Shown here one piece after another: positions 2,170-14,092 of a stretch of DNA of 14,092 bases. Each line of letters starts with the position of its first letter. The stretch's first letter is position 1. The stretch is from a virus, in UHGV virus genome UHGV-0124555; one strand, written 5' to 3'. The notes under the pieces were generated by a model. It saw only the letters and a list, made by a program, of their open reading frames with translations, ran no database searches and was not told the DNA's origin. The position numbers and the translations under genes were made by a program.

Positions 2170-2357
2170 CGTTTAACAGCCTGCCTGACGGGCTGTCTTA
2201 CCTTCTCAATCCGGTTGACGCCGGGTTAATTCCTTATACAGCACTTAAAGATGGCTCTGTCGATTTGTACGACATTGCTCTCTTGAATGACCATCTGGCG
2301 GTAAAAGCGGATAACCAGCGGCGCATTGAGAAATGGAGAGAGGATAATGAACGCTGA
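1717..2357 (+). CDS. Tail assembly chaperone, -1 frameshift fusion product (lambda GT-like, about 210 aa)
   Basis: The -1 frame is open from 2064 to TGA at 2355-2357 (hand-translated ...KFFAYTPYQHDAEPATGLTFNSLPDGL...IEKWREDNER*). It overlaps the chaperone 3' end and the first 11 nt of the tape measure gene. Slippery run GGGAAATTTTTTG lies at 2112-2124. Confidence 0.5.
2112..2124 (+). other. Candidate -1 programmed ribosomal frameshift site (overlapping heptamers A_AAT_TTT and T_TTT_TTG)
   Basis: Chaperone-frame codons GGA AAT TTT TTG sit inside an A3T6 run. The heptamers at 2115-2121 and 2118-2124 fit the X_XXY_YYZ pattern and lie within the overlap of the two open frames. Confidence 0.45.
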
Positions 2358-4299
2358 AACTATTAAAGATTTCCTCGTCTCGCTTGGCTTCAGTGTGGAT
2401 GATGCAGGAGCGAAAAAGTTCGGTTCTGTCCTCGCCGGTACAACTGCAAATGTCATCAAAATGGGGCTGGCTGTTGAAGGAGCTGCGCTGTCCGTGGTGG
2501 CCTTCACGGCTAAGATCGCCTCCGGCCTGGATAATCTTTACTGGGCGTCACAGCGCACCGGCGCGACAGTCCAGGGAATTCAGTCTATTGGCTATGCGGT
2601 TTCGCAGGTTGGCGGCAGCGTGGACGCTGCGCGATCTTCTCTGGAAAGCCTCTCCCGGTTTATTCGTAACAATCCCGGTGCAGAAGGCTTTCTGAATCGC
2701 CTGGGCGTACAGACCCGTGATGCCAGCGGTAACATGCGTGACATGGCCGCTATTTTTACAGGTGTAGGCCAGAAGCTCAGCGGCATGCCGTATTACCGGG
2801 CTAACCAGTATGCGCAGATGCTGGGCATTGACGAAAATACCCTTATGGCGATGCGCCGGGGTGTGGGTGATTTCTCCGGGCAGTACAGCGCAATGGCGAA
2901 AGCTATCGGCTTCAATGCTGACGAGGCTGCCTTATCGTCAAACCGGTTTATGACCTCGCTGAAATCGCTCGGTGAAATGGCCGGGATGGCGCGGGACAAA
3001 ATCGGATCGAATCTTGCGGACGGACTGGCGGGGCAGATTGATAACCTGCGCAAAAAGATAATTGAAAATTTTCCCAAAATTGAAGTCACCATCACAAAGG
3101 TCATAAAGGGGATCCTCTGGCTGGGTGAGATAGTCGGGCGGGTAGCATTTCGGATAGTCGATGGTGTCGGAGATATCATCGAGTGGTGGGGGAAACTGGA
3201 TGCCGAAACGAAAACCCTGATAGAGGTTATCGGCGGTCTGGTTGTCGCCATGCGGATACTTAACTCTACTTTCTGGATGTCACCTATAGGGCTGATTACC
3301 GGTCTGATCGTTGCTCTCGGTCTCTTGTGGGAAGACTACAAAACATGGAAAGAAGGCGGTAACAGTCTTATCGACTGGGAAAAATGGCAACCGGCAATAG
3401 ATAAAGCGAAGGATGCGATCACCTGGCTTCGTGATCACCTTCTGGAACTAAAAGATGGTGTTGGCGGCTGGCAAAATGCACTGGAGTTGCTGGCGACTTT
3501 TATCGCCGGAGTATGGATTAGCAAGGTCACAGGAGCATTTTCACGACTTGCAGGGATACCGGTCCCGCCGTGGTTAAAAGGCTGGATGGCTTATGCTGCG
3601 TATTTGTACTCCGATCGCGAAAATATTGGTGCCAGTGCGAAGTCATCCTGGGATTACACGAAACAAAATATTGGAGATTCATTGCGCTGGCTTGGCATTG
3701 ATACCGATTTTGGTCGTAATCCTCATATCGTAAAAGGCGCAAATATTCAGTCAGATATTCCAGGTGCTGAGCCGGAACAACATGCACAGGCTACGAAGCG
3801 TACTTTAGCCGATCGGAATAACAATCCAGGGAATATTCGCCCGGTGAGCGGCAAAGGGTTCCGGTTTTTCGAATCAGCTCTTGAGGGCTGGGAGGCGATG
3901 AAAAAACAGCTCATGCGTTACTTTACCGGGAAAACAACCGGACGGGCATTACAGACTATTCAGGATATTGTCAGTACCTGGGCCCCGGCAGGTGATAACA
4001 ACGATCCGAAAAAGTATGCACAGGATGTTGCGAAATGGATGGGAGTATCACCGAATGCAATATTGAATCTTACAGATCCCCAGACTATGGGTGCATTGAT
4101 GCAGTCGATGGCGCGAAAAGAAGGTTATTCAAACTGGAACAGCCCGCTGGCGTATCAGGCCGCCGCTGGCAGCCTTAACCAGCAGACTGTTATAAATGTT
4201 CATGGAGTTAACAACCCTCAGGAGGCGGCTAATCTGATCGCTGACAAGCAGGGGGCTGTAAATGCCAGGGCGGTACAGCAATTGAAAGGACCTGCGTAA
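2347..4299 (+). CDS. Tail tape measure protein
   Basis: Longest ORF in the module (650 aa from ATG 2347), directly after the chaperone pair. GGAGAGAGG RBS sits 5-6 nt upstream of ATG 2347; the ORF-track TTG at 2326 lacks an RBS. Long hydrophobic segments in the middle (for example LIEVIGGLVVAMRILNSTFWMSPIGLITGLIVALGLLW) are typical of tape measures. Confidence 0.8.
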   Translation: MNAETIKDFLVSLGFSVDDAGAKKFGSVLAGTTANVIKMGLAVEGAALSVVAFTAKIASGLDNLYWASQRTGATVQGIQSIGYAVSQVGGSVDAARSSLESLSRFIRNNPGAEGFLNRLGVQTRDASGNMRDMAAIFTGVGQKLSGMPYYRANQYAQMLGIDENTLMAMRRGVGDFSGQYSAMAKAIGFNADEAALSSNRFMTSLKSLGEMAGMARDKIGSNLADGLAGQIDNLRKKIIENFPKIEVTITKVIKGILWLGEIVGRVAFRIVDGVGDIIEWWGKLDAETKTLIEVIGGLVVAMRILNSTFWMSPIGLITGLIVALGLLWEDYKTWKEGGNSLIDWEKWQPAIDKAKDAITWLRDHLLELKDGVGGWQNALELLATFIAGVWISKVTGAFSRLAGIPVPPWLKGWMAYAAYLYSDRENIGASAKSSWDYTKQNIGDSLRWLGIDTDFGRNPHIVKGANIQSDIPGAEPEQHAQATKRTLADRNNNPGNIRPVSGKGFRFFESALEGWEAMKKQLMRYFTGKTTGRALQTIQDIVSTWAPAGDNNDPKKYAQDVAKWMGVSPNAILNLTDPQTMGALMQSMARKEGYSNWNSPLAYQAAAGSLNQQTVINVHGVNNPQEAANLIADKQGAVNARAVQQLKGPA

Positions 4300-4952: not shown

Positions 4953-5255
4953 ATGGAGGCCGTAGAAATCCCACTGGTTGCTGACAATCAGACTTTTGCC
5001 ACCACAATTAACGGTACGGTTTATCAGCTGTCTGTCATCTGGCGCGGAGAGTATTGGGTTCTGGATCTTGCTGACAGCAATGGTTCCGCCATTATCTCAG
5101 GCATTCCGATGATTACGGGGGCTGACCTGCTGGCGCAGTATCGATATATGAATCTCGGGTTTTCGCTGGTGGTACTCTGCGACGTGGCAGGGCAGGAAAA
5201 CCCGACGCAATTCGATCTTGGAACGCTCTCACACCTCTATGTTTTCACGGAGTAA
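4953..5255 (+). CDS. Small hypothetical tail/baseplate protein
   Basis: 100-aa ORF starting 4 nt after the previous stop, with GGAAGGTGA RBS. Tightly packed within the tail operon. Confidence 0.45.
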   Translation: MEAVEIPLVADNQTFATTINGTVYQLSVIWRGEYWVLDLADSNGSAIISGIPMITGADLLAQYRYMNLGFSLVVLCDVAGQENPTQFDLGTLSHLYVFTE

Positions 5256-5257
5256 CA

Positions 5258-6292
5258 ATGTCGAAAAACTGGATGCGTCACTTTGAATTATTGCTTGTTG
5301 ATGATAAGGGCGACGGGATAAAAATTTCTGAGCTTAAAGTCACTTTCAATATTCAGAAAATGCCTGCGAGCATATTTAATGGATTCGTTGGAAATTTTAA
5401 GGTTTATAACCTGTCCCCTACCACTCAGAACCGGATTATGCAAAAGGAGTTTTCGCGTATACAGGTTATTGCCGGATACAAGGGGCAACCGGATGCAGCA
5501 GGTAATTATCCTGATGAAAACGTTGGTATGATATTCAATGGAGATATCCGTTTTACTGTCACTGGTAAAGATAATGCCACAGACAGTTGGATCATGTTGC
5601 AGTGTATTGACAGCTGGGAAGGTCACCTGAACGCAAGTGTGAAAACCACAGTGGCAGCTGGCTGGAAGTACAGCGATCTTTTCAGTCTGGGTATGAAATC
5701 ATTCGAACCATATGGCATCGAATCCGGTGCAGTTCCTGACATGCCGGAAACGGTATTTCCCAGAGGTCGCGTTGTTTATCAAAACACATCAAGGTTGATG
5801 AATCATATCGCAGGGCAGTGTAAAGCTAACTGGTGGTATGAAAATAATCTGGTAAATATTGTTCCTGAAGATAAATATATTGGTGTTGCTACGGTGTTGA
5901 ATGCTAACACCGGGCTTATCGGTATGCCACAGCAGACGATGGGAGCTGGCGTAAATGTCAGATGTCTGATTAATCCAAATATTAAGCTCGGTGGGCTTAT
6001 TCGTCTGGATCAGGCATCTGTATACCGTGCCTCTTTGAGTAATGACCAGGTAGCGAAATCGCCAGCACGACTGGATGAGTCTGAAAGCGACGGTAATCTC
6101 TACGTTAACGGTCTGCCAGGCATGTCACAGCCTGCCAGCATTAATACTGACGGTGATTACATTGTGGGCAGCATTGATTATACTGGCGACACCCGAGGGC
6201 AGGCGTGGTATATGGACCTGCTTTGCCTGGCTAAAGGTGGCAAAGAACTATTGGCAAAAGGCACTTTGGACAAAGTCGGAGATGTAGAGTGA
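5258..6292 (+). CDS. Putative baseplate hub protein (Mu gp44/P2 gpD-like) by synteny
   Basis: 344-aa ORF starting 3 nt after the previous stop. Size and position match the hub gene that precedes the spike in Mu-type tails. The 5' portion looks AT-rich relative to flanking tail genes, so a mosaic origin is possible. Confidence 0.45.
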   Translation: MSKNWMRHFELLLVDDKGDGIKISELKVTFNIQKMPASIFNGFVGNFKVYNLSPTTQNRIMQKEFSRIQVIAGYKGQPDAAGNYPDENVGMIFNGDIRFTVTGKDNATDSWIMLQCIDSWEGHLNASVKTTVAAGWKYSDLFSLGMKSFEPYGIESGAVPDMPETVFPRGRVVYQNTSRLMNHIAGQCKANWWYENNLVNIVPEDKYIGVATVLNANTGLIGMPQQTMGAGVNVRCLINPNIKLGGLIRLDQASVYRASLSNDQVAKSPARLDESESDGNLYVNGLPGMSQPASINTDGDYIVGSIDYTGDTRGQAWYMDLLCLAKGGKELLAKGTLDKVGDVE

Positions 6293-6624
6293 AAAAAGTA
6301 TTTTTTTGTTTATTCTTGGCCCTGCCGTTAACAGTTTCGGCGGCAACGCAGTGCGGACCATTCCGCTTTGATGCTGGTAATGATGGCCTCATGCACATCA
6401 ATGGTCAAAAGCCAGAAACACAAAAAATGACCTTTTTGAAACAAAAAGACGATTTCGATAATGTCATGATGCAATGGATGTTACCTGATCCTAATACTGG
6501 ACGTTGGTTAGGTATGGACTACATCAAACGAAACAAAAAAGCGATCCTCAACGTTGAAGTTATCCGCAAAAATATGGACGAGCCTCGGGAGTTCTGGACG
6601 TATGATTGCCGGAAGGTTAAATGA
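6289..6624 (+). CDS. Secreted/periplasmic protein of unknown function (accessory 'moron'); signal peptide MKKVFFCLFLALPLTVSA|ATQ
   Basis: 111-aa ORF with a GTG start overlapping the hub stop (GTGA). The N-terminus has a basic n-region, hydrophobic core and VSA cleavage motif, with no lipobox. The mature part has Cys near each end. The gene is visibly AT-rich and has its own terminator. Confidence 0.55.
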   Translation: MKKVFFCLFLALPLTVSAATQCGPFRFDAGNDGLMHINGQKPETQKMTFLKQKDDFDNVMMQWMLPDPNTGRWLGMDYIKRNKKAILNVEVIRKNMDEPREFWTYDCRKVK

Positions 6625-6639
6625 TCTTGCCCTCTCCGT

Positions 6640-6667
6640 AACCCACCGTCAGGTGGGTTTTTTGTTT
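6640..6667 (+). terminator. Rho-independent terminator after the signal-peptide gene
   Basis: Perfect 8-bp stem AACCCACC/GGTGGGTT with loop GTCA, followed by TTTTTTGTTT. The stop codon and last four codons (KKPT) of the convergent Mnt-like gene are encoded inside the hairpin and T-tract. Confidence 0.6.
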
Positions 6668-6969
6668 AGCAGTTCTCTCAACTTTTCGTTCTGCTCTCTG
6701 AACTTTTCCTGTATTTCTTTTTGCATGGCGATAACCTGGGCTTGAAGTTGAACTAGCGCATCAACATTTAGCGGAACCGAGACGCTGTTGATTTTGTCTG
6801 CTATTTCCCCAAGAGTATTTTCTGCATTCAAGGCATCTTCCAGTATCTGCACAATCTCTGAGTTCATTGATCTGCCGTTACGTTTAGCTCGTTCAGCTAT
6901 AGCATCTCGCATTCCGTCAGGAAAACGGAGGTTGAACTTGTCGTAGTCTTTTACTTGTTTTTCGGCCAT
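6649..6969 (-). CDS. mnt: Mnt-like ribbon-helix-helix (Arc/MetJ family) repressor with a C-terminal coiled-coil-like extension
   Basis: FNLRFPDGMRDAIAERAKRNGRSMNSEIVQILEDAL closely matches the P22 Mnt/Arc beta-strand and helix motif (FNxRxP ... NGRSxNSE), recalled from memory. The start is placed at ATG 6969 (MAEKQVKDYDKFNLRFP) rather than the ORF-track 6993. The C-terminal 60 aa are rich in Q/E/K/L. The gene is divergent from the arc-like gene, as in P22 immI. Confidence 0.7.
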   Translation of the reverse strand: MAEKQVKDYDKFNLRFPDGMRDAIAERAKRNGRSMNSEIVQILEDALNAENTLGEIADKINSVSVPLNVDALVQLQAQVIAMQKEIQEKFREQNEKLRELLNKKPT

Positions 6970-7076
6970 TGCAAATCTCTCAAAAAAAATCATGGTGCCA
7001 TATTGCCATATGATTTCAATGGTGGCATTATGGCCTTCATGGTGTCACTTTGGCACCAAATAAAGGAGATTAGATA
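6970..7076. promoter_or_regulatory. Divergent promoter/operator region between the mnt-like and arc-like genes (candidate Pant and Pmnt)
   Basis: Rightward candidate promoter: -35 TTGCCA (7003-7008), 17-bp spacer, -10 CATTAT (7026-7031). Leftward candidate -10 CATAAT sits on the - strand at 7027-7032. Repeats present: tandem TGCCATAT x2 (6996-7011), ATGGTG x3 (6992, 7019, 7039), and inverted pair GGTGCCA (6994-7000) / TGGCACC (7051-7057). AAGGAG RBS at 7063-7068. Confidence 0.4.
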
Positions 7077-7250
7077 ATGCAAGATACACTTTTCACTGAG
7101 CGCAAAAATATCAAACTCAACCTTCGCCTTCCATCACGGCTGAATGAAGACCTTCGCCGCCTGGCGGAAATGGACTGTATATCTCTGAACTCTGCAATTG
7201 TTCGTTTGCTGGCAAAAGGTGTTAGGGAAGAGGTGGCGAATGGTCGCTAA
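7077..7250 (+). CDS. arc: Arc-like ribbon-helix-helix repressor (57 aa; absent from the ORF track)
   Basis: Hand translation gives MQDTLFTERKNIKLNLRLPSRLNEDLRRLAEMDCISLNSAIVRLLAKGVREEVANGR*. AAGGAG RBS lies 8 nt upstream. The NLRLP beta-strand and SLNSAI helix follow the Arc pattern, and the gene sits directly upstream of the antirepressor-like gene as in P22 arc-ant. Confidence 0.7.
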   Translation: MQDTLFTERKNIKLNLRLPSRLNEDLRRLAEMDCISLNSAIVRLLAKGVREEVANGR

Positions 7251-7321
7251 AAACAGCGAAGCCCCGACAGCGGGAACTGGCGAGGCTTCTACATCAACAA
7301 ATCTGATCGGGAAATATTGAC
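7251..7321 (-). ncRNA. Candidate sar-like cis-antisense small RNA covering the antirepressor RBS and start codon
   Basis: Minus-strand candidate promoter inside the 5' end of the antirepressor gene: -10 TATACT (complement of 7328-7333), 17-bp spacer, -35 GTGAAA (complement of 7351-7356). Minus-strand terminator: stem GAAGCC (7258-7263) / GGCTTC (7284-7289) followed on the - strand by GCTGTTTTT. Predicted transcript is about 70 nt, analogous to P22 sar. Confidence 0.3.
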
Positions 7322-8200
7322 ATGAAAAGTATAGCAAAGACACAAAACGATTTCACCATCTTCAAATTCGGCGACAGTGAAATCCGCGTCATCAACAAGT
7401 GCGGTGAGCCGTGGTTTGTAGCTAAAGATGTTTGTGATGCTTTAGCTTTGACTAACTCACGCAAGGCGCTTACTGCACTTGATGACGATGAAAAGGGAGT
7501 AACTTTAAGTTACACCCTTGGTGGTGAGCAGAATTTAAGCATTGTGAGCGAATCAGGTATGTATACATTGGTTTTGCGCTGCCGCGATGCCGTCAATAAA
7601 GGTTCAGTCCCGCACAAATTCCGCAAGTGGGTAACAGCAGAAGTTCTGCCTTCAATTCGCAAATATGGCGAGTATGTGAAAGGCAAGAAAACCACAGTTG
7701 AAGAAAGAACACCGCTACGCGATGCAGTAAACATGCTGGTAGGAAAGAAAGGACTTCGCTATGACGATGCATACAATATGGTTCATCAGCGTTTTGGTAT
7801 TGACAGCATTGATGAACTTTCAATTGAACAAATCCCGCTGGCCGTAGAGTACATCCACAGGGTGGTGCTTGAAGGTGAGTTCATTGGCAAGCAAGAGAAG
7901 AAAGCAAACGAGCTTTCTGCAAAAGAAGCAAACAGTCTTGTATGGTTATGGGATTATGCCAACCGCTCACAGGCATTATTCCGCGAACTGTATCCGGCAT
8001 TAAAACAAATTCAATCGAACTATTCCGGAAGATGCTACGACTACGGTCATGAGTTTTCGTATGTTATCGGAATGGCGAGAGACGTTTTAATCAACCACAC
8101 ACGAGATGTTGATATCAATGAGCCAGGCGGACCAACGAATCTTTCCGCATGGGTAAGGCTTAAGAACAAAGAGTTGCCGCCTTCACTGCATCGCTACTGA
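7322..8200 (+). CDS. ant: Bro-N domain protein, putative antirepressor (P22 Ant-like); a KilA-N-type abortive-infection protein (BstA-like) is an alternative
   Basis: 292-aa ORF. The N-terminal about 110 aa carry the Bro-N signature ([32 protein letters not shown] ... LDDDEK). The C-terminal about 180 aa have no motif I recognise. The gene lies directly downstream of the arc-like gene and is visibly AT-rich. Confidence 0.6.
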
Positions 8201-8216
8201 CAATTGACAACTTAAC

Positions 8217-8242
8217 AAACCCAGCTTCTGCTGGGTTTTTTA
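8217..8242 (+). terminator. Rho-independent terminator after the antirepressor-like gene
   Basis: Perfect 8-bp stem AACCCAGC/GCTGGGTT with loop TTCT, followed by a T-run. The stem is nearly identical to the terminator at 6640-6667. Confidence 0.6.
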
Positions 8243-8260
8243 CTTTCTGGAGACATATGA

Positions 8261-9016
8261 ATGCCCGTTTCTTTAATCGCTCAACTTGGTAGCAAAGAAC
8301 AGGCCGATGTAAGACTTGCTGGCTCTGTCATGTCGGCGCTGCGTGTTTCTATGCCCGGCATCGTCCAGTCATTTGATCCGGACACGGTAACAGTGGTTGT
8401 TCAACCTGCGATTAAAGGCTATGAGCCGGACTCAAATGGAATCAACCAGTCGACGACATTACCCCTGCTGGTGGATGTACCAGTGGTATTCCCGCGCGGC
8501 GGAGGCTGTACGTTGACTTTTCCGGTTAAAGCCGGGGATGAATGCCTGGTGATTTTCGCCGACCGCTGCATCGATTTCTGGTGGCAGAACGGCGGGGTGC
8601 AGGAGCCTGTCGACGACCGGGTGCATGATTTATCGGATGCTTTCTGTATCGTCGGGCCGCAGTCTCAGGCGCAGAAAATAAGCGGAATAAGCACCAGTGG
8701 CGCGCAGCTGCGTACTGATGATGGCGCTGCGTTTGTGGAAGTGGCCGCAGGCCATAACATCACGGTTAAAACTCCCGGCGCGTTGACGGCGACAGCAGAA
8801 GGAGGAACCACGATCACATCACCCACCATCACGCTAAACGGCAACGTGACAATAAACGGGAATCTCTCTCAGGGGATGGGCGAAAGCGGCGGCACCGCGA
8901 CGATGCTTGGCCCTGTCACGGTGACTAACGATGTAAAAGCTGGTGGTAAGAGCCTGATGACGCACACGCACGGCGGAGTACAGACCGGCGGCGGTAACAC
9001 AGGAGCGCCTAACTGA
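8261..9016 (+). CDS. Baseplate central spike / assembly protein V (Mu gp45 / P2 gpV-like)
   Basis: 251-aa ORF with GGAGA RBS 7 nt upstream. The C-terminal half is Gly/Thr-rich and repetitive (TVKTPGALTATAEGGTTITSPTITLNGNVTINGN), like a beta-helical spike. It ends with an H-x-H motif (MTHTHGG), matching the metal-binding apex of gpV-type spikes. Confidence 0.7.
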   Translation: MPVSLIAQLGSKEQADVRLAGSVMSALRVSMPGIVQSFDPDTVTVVVQPAIKGYEPDSNGINQSTTLPLLVDVPVVFPRGGGCTLTFPVKAGDECLVIFADRCIDFWWQNGGVQEPVDDRVHDLSDAFCIVGPQSQAQKISGISTSGAQLRTDDGAAFVEVAAGHNITVKTPGALTATAEGGTTITSPTITLNGNVTINGNLSQGMGESGGTATMLGPVTVTNDVKAGGKSLMTHTHGGVQTGGGNTGAPN

Positions 9017-12719: not shown

Positions 12720-13877
12720 TCACTCCACCTTTTCATCAATCCAATCCGCCCACCATTGCATCATTTCTCTGCGTTTATCGAGATACTGCGCATGGTTGTA
12801 AATCCCGCGCACAGAACCGCCGTTGGCATGTGCCAGTTGCACTTCAATAGCGTCAGCAGGCCATTCGTGCTCGTTCATAATCGTGCTGAATTCATGCCTG
12901 AATCCGTGACCGCTTTCCAGACCTTCATAGCCGATTTGTTTGATCACAAGCAATACCGCGTTCTCGCAGATTGGCTTCTTCTTATCGTTGCGCCCGGCAA
13001 AAACAAACTCTGAGACTGGTTTGGTGATTGAGCTTAGCGTAGTGAGAAGTTCAACCACCTGGTCTGACATCGGGACCACATGAATTTTGCGTCCCTTCAT
13101 CACACTGGCGTCGATGGTGATAATCCTGTTTTCAAAATCGACGTTCTTCCATAGCATGGAACGAAGCTCTTTCGTTCTTAGGGCTGTATAACGTAAAACT
13201 TTTGTCGCAATGAGCGATACGATACTTCCTGAAAATGTTGCCAGTGCTTTGTTGAATGCAGGCACCTGGTCTGCTGGAAGGAACGGGAAGTTCTTCTTGC
13301 GGTATCCTTTCATGGCGTCTGCAAGGTCAGGTGCCGGGTTATATTTAGCCCTTCCGGTGACAATAGCGTAACGAAAAACCTCGCCGCATCTTCTGCGGGC
13401 TTTGTTGGCTCGCTCCATTGCACCGCGATCTTCAAATCTGCGGATTACTTCCAGCAGTTGCATCGGCTCAATATCCTGAATCTCAAGACCGCCGATGATG
13501 GGTAAAATGTCGTCATCAAACATTTTGGCAAGTTCAGTTGCATAGCCTACTGACCAGACTTGCTTCTTGTGCTCGTACCATTCCTTGTAAATCGCACTAA
13601 ATGAATTGTTGTTAGACGAAGCCTTTTTCGCCTTTACCGGATCGATGCCAACCGAGATGTCTTTCCTCGCAGTCCATGCCTTATCCCTTGCTTCCTGCAA
13701 AGTCATAAGCGGATATTTTCCGACGGTCAGGATTTTCTCCTTACCGTCAATCTTGTAGCGAAGCTGCCATACCTTTTTCCCGGATACAGGAACATAAAGG
13801 TACAGGCCATTACCATCGAGAAGGCGGTATGGTTTTTCTTTCGGCTTTGCTGCTTCAATCTGCTTAACGGTGAGCAT
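12720..13877 (-). CDS. int: Tyrosine recombinase / phage integrase (P4-type)
   Basis: The N-terminus MLTVKQIEAAKPKEKPYRLLDGNGLYLYV matches the P4-type integrase arm-binding signature. The C-terminus has HGFRHEF ... LAHANGGSVRGIYNHAQY, consistent with the catalytic H-x-x-R and Tyr. It lies next to a tRNA gene. Start is placed at ATG 13877; the ORF-track GTG at 13913 is an alternative. Confidence 0.9.
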   Translation of the reverse strand: MLTVKQIEAAKPKEKPYRLLDGNGLYLYVPVSGKKVWQLRYKIDGKEKILTVGKYPLMTLQEARDKAWTARKDISVGIDPVKAKKASSNNNSFSAIYKEWYEHKKQVWSVGYATELAKMFDDDILPIIGGLEIQDIEPMQLLEVIRRFEDRGAMERANKARRRCGEVFRYAIVTGRAKYNPAPDLADAMKGYRKKNFPFLPADQVPAFNKALATFSGSIVSLIATKVLRYTALRTKELRSMLWKNVDFENRIITIDASVMKGRKIHVVPMSDQVVELLTTLSSITKPVSEFVFAGRNDKKKPICENAVLLVIKQIGYEGLESGHGFRHEFSTIMNEHEWPADAIEVQLAHANGGSVRGIYNHAQYLDKRREMMQWWADWIDEKVE

Positions 13878-13913
13878 GGGTAAAAATCCGGTGGGTAAAA
13901 TTATTTTATCCAC

Positions 13914-14038: not shown

Positions 14039-14092
14039 TGGTGTCCCCTGCAGGAATCGAACCTGCAATTAGCCCTTAGGAGGGGCTCGTTA
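14039..14092 (-). tRNA. argW: tRNA-Arg (anticodon CCU), 3' 54 nt; the 5' part lies beyond the window edge
   Basis: The reverse complement reads TAACGAGCCCCTCCTAAGGGCTAATTGCAGGTTCGATTCCTGCAGGGGACACCA. It shows an anticodon stem AGCCC/GGGCT with loop CUCCUAA (anticodon CCU), a T-arm GCAGG-TTCGATT-CCTGC, and acceptor 3' strand plus CCA. This matches enterobacterial argW from memory. Confidence 0.85.

Follow-up and report, generated by a model that had tools for sequence, protein, structure and literature searches.

The DNA analyzed here, a stretch of 14,092 nucleotides (nt) from UHGV virus genome UHGV-0124555 (hereafter the window), corresponds to the tail half of an E. coli prophage and is 99% identical to prophages of strains 2013C-4991 and 5CRE51. 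Between its baseplate hub gene and its spike gene, an open reading frame (ORF) at positions 6289-6624 encodes a product of 111 amino acids (aa). We interpret this gene as exported, non-structural cargo of the moron type, a reading to which we assign a probability of roughly 0.6. Morons are promoter-gene-terminator units located in the late operons of lambdoid phages (PMC3594210). A preliminary description of the same DNA had proposed a secreted accessory gene within the tail operon, and the comparison of related tail modules bears this proposal out, as the gene is replaced in some of them, its alleles are shuffled and it has lone relatives in bacterial chromosomes. The role suggested there for the ORF, namely lysogenic conversion or superinfection exclusion, is plausible, and we tentatively favor exclusion at the level of the cell envelope.

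Comparison of related tail modules

Homologues of the ORF are located directly 3' of the hub gene in phages of Klebsiella, Citrobacter, and E. coli, down to an identity of 28% in phage Mulock. The 22 species-representative genomes detected by a pattern scan likewise all have a homologue after the hub, with an intervening gene in two genomes and only C-terminal remnants in two. Taken alone, such constant placement would suggest a structural gene.

The frequency of the gene was estimated from 80 tail modules retrieved solely by means of the hub protein, the only set fit for this purpose. An intact homologue was present in 70 of these modules and a 27-aa remnant in one, eight carried an unrelated replacement, and one was too short to be assessed. 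Modules with the replacement (8/79 assessable) have hubs that are 70-97% identical to that of the window. Presence as a structural part in all related tail modules was the outcome that the preliminary description had set against its own proposal; what we found is a gene absent or replaced in about 10% of them. The replacement gene (positions 5022-5276 in loci L028, L030, L037, and L040, 4545-4787 in L039, 5028-5270 in L060, 2748-2990 in L068, and 4743-4985 in L074) encodes an unrelated protein of 80-84 aa with a signal peptide and four cysteines, rich in Thr and Gly and with repeated T-N/G-T-G-T-T-Y-C motifs. Its reading frame also overlaps the stop codon of the hub gene or directly adjoins it, and further ORFs with signal peptides often come after it. 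Searches of Pfam, PHROG, NCBIfam, and PADLOC returned no match for this family.

The alleles of the ORF are decoupled from those of the hub: hubs that are 98% identical accompany ORFs that are 63-65% identical, and a hub of 80% identity accompanies an ORF of 99% identity. No covariation was detected between alleles of the ORF and those of the tape-measure C-terminus or of the spike. Some family members are lipoprotein variants that occupy the same slot after the hub (L089, 6001-6879; L090, 4625-5503; proteins P0126 and also P0135), in which a lipobox and an uncharacterized N-terminal domain of ~190 aa are fused to the family barrel. In a relative from marine metagenomes (L093 and L094) the homologue is located between plug and hub (371-709 in L093). 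Two distant members, 28-35% identical to the window protein, are lone chromosomal genes located beside LysR-type regulators (L092, 5001-5339; L095, 5001-5369), and phage genes are absent within 5 kb of them. The replacement, the allele shuffling, the sharp break points in homology described below, the fusions and relocation, and the lone chromosomal copies together argue that the gene is exchangeable cargo and not a structural component.

Two further observations were made in the course of this comparison. Some loci retain only C-terminal remnants of 24-50 aa (L071, 5749-5829; L116, 3501-3650; L117, 3501-3572), which indicates decay of the 111-aa gene, or its displacement by other cargo, in some prophages. 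On the marine contig with the homologue between plug and hub, an Acyl_transf_3 gene follows the fiber genes.

Translation start, signal peptide, and composition of the ORF

The GTG start codon of the ORF (6289-6291) overlaps the TGA stop codon of the hub gene (6290-6292) to give GTGA at 6289-6292, and a Shine-Dalgarno motif (GGAG, 6278-6281) is located within the hub gene, 7 nt 5' of the start. In the product, VKKVFFCLFLALPLTVSA|ATQCGPF...YDCRKVK, residues 1-18 (6289-6342, plus strand) form a predicted signal peptide made up of a KK pair, a hydrophobic core (maximum Kyte-Doolittle value of 2.67 over ten residues), and a VSA|A cleavage motif for signal peptidase I, with no lipobox. All signal-peptide calls derive from heuristic scoring; by this scoring the window protein and all of the 37 homologues scored with it have a positively charged, hydrophobic N-terminus and an AXA-type site. 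The n/h/c pattern of the signal segment is kept in kind and not in sequence. Among the homologues this segment varies freely and the mature part is conserved, which is the behavior expected of genuine signal peptides.

The rest of the ORF (6343-6624, plus strand) encodes, up to and including the stop codon, a mature protein of 93 aa that is predicted to be periplasmic. This part is supported by an AlphaFold2 model, invariant alignment columns, and a full-length match to the protein family phrog_3443. Cys22 (codon 6352-6354) and Cys107 (codon 6607-6609) are invariant in alignments of 36 and of 45 homologues, and they fall in the first and last strands of the predicted barrel. The start codon overlapping the hub stop, the Sec signal peptide with its cleavage motif at VSA|ATQ, and the cysteines near both ends of the mature protein had all been pointed out in the preliminary description and were confirmed. 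Its view of the gene as markedly AT-rich holds against the window as a whole (42.0% versus 49.0% GC) and fails against the neighboring genes, since the hub gene has 44.7% GC and the mnt-like gene on the other side 41.7%. GC content at third codon positions likewise differed little in the comparison of the ORF with its neighbors (0.46 versus 0.44). The distinct base composition by which morons are recognized is not seen here, and the ORF is not a compositional outlier among its neighbors.

Some automatic annotations name the protein a lipoprotein. This was ruled out by the lack of a lipobox and by the position of the cysteine, at +4 from the AXA site. The product of the ORF is predicted to be a soluble periplasmic protein exported by the Sec pathway, and in annotation the gene should carry neither the label "tail protein" nor the label "lipoprotein".

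Predicted structure and protein family

AlphaFold2 modeled the mature protein with eight strands, a mean pLDDT of 87.3, and a pTM of 0.73. The predicted fold is an eight-stranded beta-barrel whose first and last strands are likely joined by a disulfide between Cys22 and Cys107. An outer-membrane barrel such as Lom was considered and ruled out on account of the mature chain of only 93 aa, the short charged strands, and the pair of cysteines. Structural matches to the predicted barrel were weak and generic, and a sequence-profile search of the PDB retrieved only nanobodies at E values of about 0.02, which we judged spurious. The ORF product also gave no family-profile match and no specific structural match to the periplasmic lysozyme inhibitors of the MliC/PliC type, which are eight-stranded barrels.

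No family had been recognized for this protein in the preliminary description, a statement that we can now correct. PHROG family phrog_3443, listed with function unknown, matches the protein over its full length (E = 7.4e-48; residues 2-111 on positions 2-114 of the 115 in the profile). Of the remote-homology and structure searches that had been suggested, the former thus placed the protein in a family and the latter gave no informative match. There were no matches in Pfam (also at E <= 1) or NCBIfam, and none in PADLOC at E <= 0.1, where no defense or exclusion model fits. The ORF is outside every characterized exclusion, lysozyme-inhibitor, or defense family tested here.

A word-indexed search yielded 134 clusters of homologues, and every cluster with a named source belonged to Enterobacterales. 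When 1.84 billion representative proteins were searched exhaustively with the family profile, only 60 clusters at 50% identity were retrieved, which shows that the family is narrow. The cluster at 90% identity that is nearly identical to the window protein occurs on at least 1000 contigs of E. coli, and a second such cluster, 95% identical to the window protein, occurs on 701 contigs that derive mostly from Salmonella. Public copies carry the automatic names "hypothetical protein", "Secreted protein", and "Lipoprotein". All members, including the distant ones, share a variable signal peptide, the motif C-G-P-F at 1-10 residues past the predicted cut, and Y-D-C near the C-terminus. The profile also matched repeat proteins of great length (P0162 and others like it); these matches look like repeat artifacts and were set aside. 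Nothing relevant emerged from literature searches with the RefSeq accession and with likely S. Typhi locus tags. In phrog_3443 the protein thus has an already catalogued family, and one that is common in public genomes.

The cargo slot between hub and spike

The cargo slot spans approximately positions 6238-8232 of the window. DNA alignments and blastn break points place its left recombination junction in the last ~17 codons of the hub gene (6238-6288, plus strand), which covary with the type of cargo; homology to loci with alternative cargo stops at about 6237. In many E. coli genomes the match to the window, at 97.9-99.9% identity, extends to position 6624 exactly, beyond which a DUF4282 gene replaces the mnt/arc/ant genes. 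On the right side of the slot homology resumes at about 8212-8233. This boundary coincides with a conserved slot terminator (8217-8248, plus strand), a hairpin at 8217-8238 with a 9-bp stem and a T-run, that lies directly 5' of the ribosome-binding site of the spike gene. A hairpin with a T-run was found within 85 nt 5' of the spike gene, 10-20 nt before its ribosome-binding site, in 100 of 106 loci, and where the phrog_3443 ORF is the sole cargo this terminator comes straight after it. With a terminator in mid-operon, late transcripts must either pass it by antitermination or undergo attenuation at this point.

A second hairpin (6640-6659) is located 16 nt 3' of the ORF, with an 8-bp stem that includes five GC pairs and is followed by TTTTTGTTT. 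Scanning and folding identified it as an intrinsic terminator (6640-6667, plus strand), and a 51-nt segment containing it folds with -16.8 kcal/mol (z = -3.2 versus shuffles), in agreement with the strong terminator that had been noted after the gene. Its attribution to the gene as its own terminator needs to be divided. Termination after the cargo is a property of the slot in general, as seen from the hairpins before the spike gene, and the hairpin at 6640-6659 belongs to the mnt/arc/ant cassette: together with the sequence downstream of it, it also occurs in the mnt/arc/ant segment of phages of the Stx type, JLK-2012 among them, and in loci L005 and L001, where an identical ORF is present without this cassette, the ORF is not directly followed by a terminator. 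This indicates that the hairpin arrived with the cassette.

The cassette itself is an immI-like module (6649-8200) composed of a gene for a Mnt-like repressor of the Arc family (6649-6993, minus strand), a small arc gene (7077-7250, plus strand), and an ant gene (7322-8200, plus strand). Its assignment is based on the Pfam domains Arc, Bro-N, and P22_AR_C and on the RefSeq annotation of a 99% identical prophage, and the region (6625-8232) is ~95% identical to modules of Stx-converting phages. The presence of a complete Mnt/Arc/Ant module inside the tail operon means that an antirepressor switch is the second cargo of the slot.

A census of slot contents covered 95 distinct hub-to-spike intervals, a set that includes loci collected through the ORF itself. 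The phrog_3443 family occupied 64 of these slots and held the first position in 63; it is the commonest cargo of this hotspot, which belongs to a widespread family of temperate lambdoid myoviruses of Enterobacterales (E. coli, Salmonella, and Klebsiella). Other cargo comprised small DUF4282 membrane proteins (10 slots), Ant (19), Arc (11), and other families with signal peptides or transmembrane segments, and some ORFs resembled, by eye, a Doc/Phd toxin-antitoxin pair. Of the 93 ORFs in first position, a simple heuristic classed 74 as signal-peptide or transmembrane proteins. Among 64 distinct junctions between the hub and the ORF, 54 overlap the hub stop codon and the others are 1-7 nt away from it, so that late co-translation of the ORF with the hub is conserved. 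The slot has moron-like boundaries, namely a candidate promoter, a junction in the 3' end of the hub gene, and a terminator before the spike gene.

A candidate promoter within the hub gene

The candidate promoter is of the sigma-70 type (ATTACA-17-TATACT; 6156-6184, plus strand) and was found by a consensus scan with 9 of 12 matches. Its -10-like hexamer TATACT (6179-6184) sits about 105 nt 5' of the ORF and to the left of the recombination junction, a position from which it would serve any cargo in the slot.

Synonymous constraint was analyzed in 66-68 hub genes after de-duplication at 97% identity. The ten-codon window that starts at 6155 has a synonymous codon entropy of 0.586, the lowest in the hub gene (mean 0.786, SD 0.064) and below even that of its translation-start region. 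The two codons that make up the hexamer, TAT (63/65 sequences) and ACT (54/56), rank first and second in synonymous constraint among 146 conserved degenerate codons. Codons around them vary freely, and the Thr codon three positions further on is ACT in only 48% of the sequences. These data show that selection at the nucleotide level acts on TATACT in the hub gene. We infer from the sequence that the hexamer is the -10 element of a promoter. Several points weigh against this identification: the scan as a whole found six sites where 3.2 +/- 1.6 were expected, which is not above chance; the candidate itself has a weak -35 element and, at 9/12 matches, is not significant alone; and the synonymous constraint could stem from another cis element. 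Two details are of modest novelty, the embedded and synonymously constrained candidate -10 element and the terminator present in nearly all slots.

Genomic setting

The window opens with genes for the sheath (DUF3383), the tube (DUF3277), a chaperone, and a tape-measure protein with a lytic transglycosylase domain, followed by a Dit-like protein, a plug of the Pam3_gp18 type, a hub of the E217_gp41 type, the ORF, the mnt/arc/ant module, and a gpV-like spike. It continues with gp25-like, baseplate J, DUF2612, fiber, and fiber chaperone genes and ends with an integrase gene beside a tRNA fragment. The hub gene on the left flank of the slot (5258-6292, plus strand) was identified by Pfam E217_GP41 (31.1 bits, cut-off 27) and by phrog_196, "baseplate hub" (E = 2.8e-80). 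The membrane-puncturing spike gene on the right flank (8261-9016, plus strand) was identified by the Pfam N-terminal spike domain (1.1e-43), a GpV Apex motif, and RefSeq annotation. The lytic transglycosylase (SLT-type) domain lies at the C-terminus of the tape-measure protein (2326-4299) and acts in the periplasm, which makes it a conceivable target of a periplasmic inhibitor. At the edge of the window the integrase gene (12720-13913, minus strand) adjoins the 3' fragment of a tRNA gene (14042-14092, minus strand), the sole match in an Rfam scan of the window, and this arrangement probably marks the prophage attachment site.

Comparison with known systems

T4 Spackle (Sp) is a small periplasmic protein with a signal peptide and acts as an inhibitor of gp5, the tail-spike lysozyme of superinfecting phage. 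The ORF product resembles it as a small Sec-exported periplasmic phage protein; Sp offers a model for blocking wall penetration by a contractile tail, and the lytic transglycosylase domain of the tape-measure protein could be a comparable target. In contrast to the ORF, Sp is helical and encoded by an early gene of a virulent phage; the two share no homology, and no covariation with tape-measure C-terminal alleles is seen here.

Cor and Llp are receptor-blocking lipoproteins, and Lom and Bor of lambda are likewise exported conversion or exclusion proteins encoded near tail genes. Like the ORF product, these are small exported proteins from within or beside the tail modules of temperate phages. 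They are, however, outer-membrane lipoproteins or barrels, whereas a lipobox occurs in the present family only in the rare fusions, and the shortness and charge of its barrel would not allow it to span a membrane.

HK97 gp15 is an inner-membrane superinfection-exclusion protein encoded between tail genes. As in lambdoid morons of this kind, the ORF is an extra gene between two tail genes in the late operon of a temperate lambdoid phage, its product is targeted to the envelope, a candidate promoter and a terminator flank it, and its presence varies among close relatives. Unlike gp15, to which it has no kinship in sequence or fold, its product is predicted to be a soluble periplasmic beta-barrel and not a membrane protein. 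It also differs from the gp15 moron in that it overlaps the upstream structural gene and that its candidate promoter is inside that gene.

An exclusion gene is frequently linked to the tail or injection genes responsible for the step that it blocks, as is the case for sieA of P22, which adjoins immI (mnt-arc-ant) between the genes for the ejection proteins and the tailspike gene (PMC10883804). The window similarly combines an envelope-targeted accessory gene with a mnt/arc/ant module in a late structural operon. SieA, though, lacks a signal peptide, is an inner-membrane protein of three helices, and shows no homology to the ORF product, and the adjacency of the ORF to immI is a chance meeting of two cassettes, as most genomes carry the ORF without immI.

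The Z/fun and old/tin regions of P2 are hotspots of cargo (bioRxiv 10.1101/2024.10.15.618418). The hub-spike slot resembles them as a fixed site in or near the tail genes at which similar prophages swap unrelated accessory genes. It differs from them in the phage group and in its position, in being dominated by one small secreted family, and in that PADLOC finds no defense system. In the cryo-electron microscopy study of the related Pseudomonas phage E217, the hub gp41 and the tip gp43 are parts of the virion, and gp42 is absent from the main text (PMC10329688). Should the numbering of E217 genes reflect their order, it may be a more general trait of this baseplate type to have a non-virion gene between hub and spike.

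Proposed function and alternatives

Phage Mulock, whose 28%-identical homologue has the same position, is temperate and lambdoid: it encodes an integrase, an excisionase, replication proteins of the O/P type, Nin genes, a transcriptional repressor in the position of CI, a second small repressor in the position of Cro, and a CII-like activator. In carriers of this type Q-type antiterminated read-through could occur. Late in infection, a late transcript would yield the protein by translation coupled to that of the hub; if antiterminated in this way, this transcript would read through the slot terminators. In a lysogen, transcription would start at the promoter embedded in the hub gene and end at the slot terminator. 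In both situations the protein would exert its function in the periplasm.

As for that function, we tentatively propose, at somewhat short of even odds, that the protein mediates superinfection exclusion by acting in the periplasm against the incoming tail tip or DNA-delivery machinery. This proposal draws on the lasting linkage of the gene to the tail-tip cluster across distant phages and in two positions, on the cassette-like turnover of its alleles and its replacement by other small secreted proteins, and on analogy with T4 Sp, HK97 gp15, Cor/Llp, and P22 SieA. Other observations count against it. The lack of covariation with tape-measure or spike alleles disfavors a tightly cognate interaction with those proteins, a purely lysogenic role would not need the late co-expression with the tail that is implied by the overlap with the hub stop at 54 of 64 junctions, and no homology was found to any known exclusion or inhibitor family among those tested here. 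A more specific version strikes us as doubtful, namely that the phrog_3443 barrel and the unrelated secreted replacements form a new class of periplasmic "gatekeepers" of temperate contractile-tailed phages, which would be expressed from the hub-embedded promoter and block penetration by the tail tip or tape measure, with the hub-spike slot as a docking site for envelope defenses that is equipped with a promoter and a terminator.

It seems unlikely that the protein is instead a lysogenic-conversion or fitness factor with no part in exclusion, in the form of a periplasmic calycin-like barrel whose binding partner would be a small ligand or a protein of the host envelope and which would confer on the lysogen, for example, stress tolerance or immunity to toxins that act in the periplasm. 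The distant members that stand alone in the chromosome by LysR regulators do imply a function independent of phages, and the slot holds other accessory cargo, including the Doc/Phd-like ORFs noted by eye. However, barring these two orphans, all members whose context was examined lie in the tail-tip cluster of one type of tail module (one of them between plug and hub), a confinement that is unexpected for a generic fitness gene, and the structural matches are weak and generic.

Still less likely, in our view, is a helper of the late lytic cycle that would be synthesized exclusively alongside the tail proteins and secreted into the dying cell's periplasm, for example to affect lysis timing or peptidoglycan or to block injection by progeny into the producer or its debris. 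The location of the gene within the late operon, its conserved coupling to the hub, whether by overlap or at a distance of 1-7 nt, and the periplasmic action of the tape-measure lytic transglycosylase domain are all compatible with such a helper. Yet tail modules whose hubs are 92-97% identical can do without the gene or carry a substitute for it, the lysis cassette is elsewhere in related phages, the constrained -10 element and the slot terminator suggest expression apart from the late transcript, and orphan copies occur in chromosomes.

A structural or assembly part of the tail tip, whose hydrophobic N-terminus would be an uncleaved segment for insertion of the virion into the membrane, is very improbable: the hub-spike position kept down to 28% identity, the marine homologue between plug and hub, and the translational coupling to the hub gene would suit it, but unrelated secreted proteins substitute for it in 8 of 79 assessable modules, its alleles do not co-evolve with hub, tape-measure, or spike, its signal peptide is of the classical kind with an AXA site, its pair of cysteines is invariant as expected of a periplasmic disulfide, and it occurs in lipoprotein-anchored and orphan chromosomal versions.

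If exclusion is indeed the function and phage entry is blocked from the periplasm, phrog_3443 would add a widespread exclusion family to the few such factors known for temperate myoviruses, and the hub-spike slot would be a place to seek more envelope-acting accessory genes. Whatever the function, the slot illustrates in compact form the way in which a moron can be built into a late operon, with a candidate -10 element in synonymous sites of the hub gene, a junction in its final codons, and a terminator ahead of the next structural gene.

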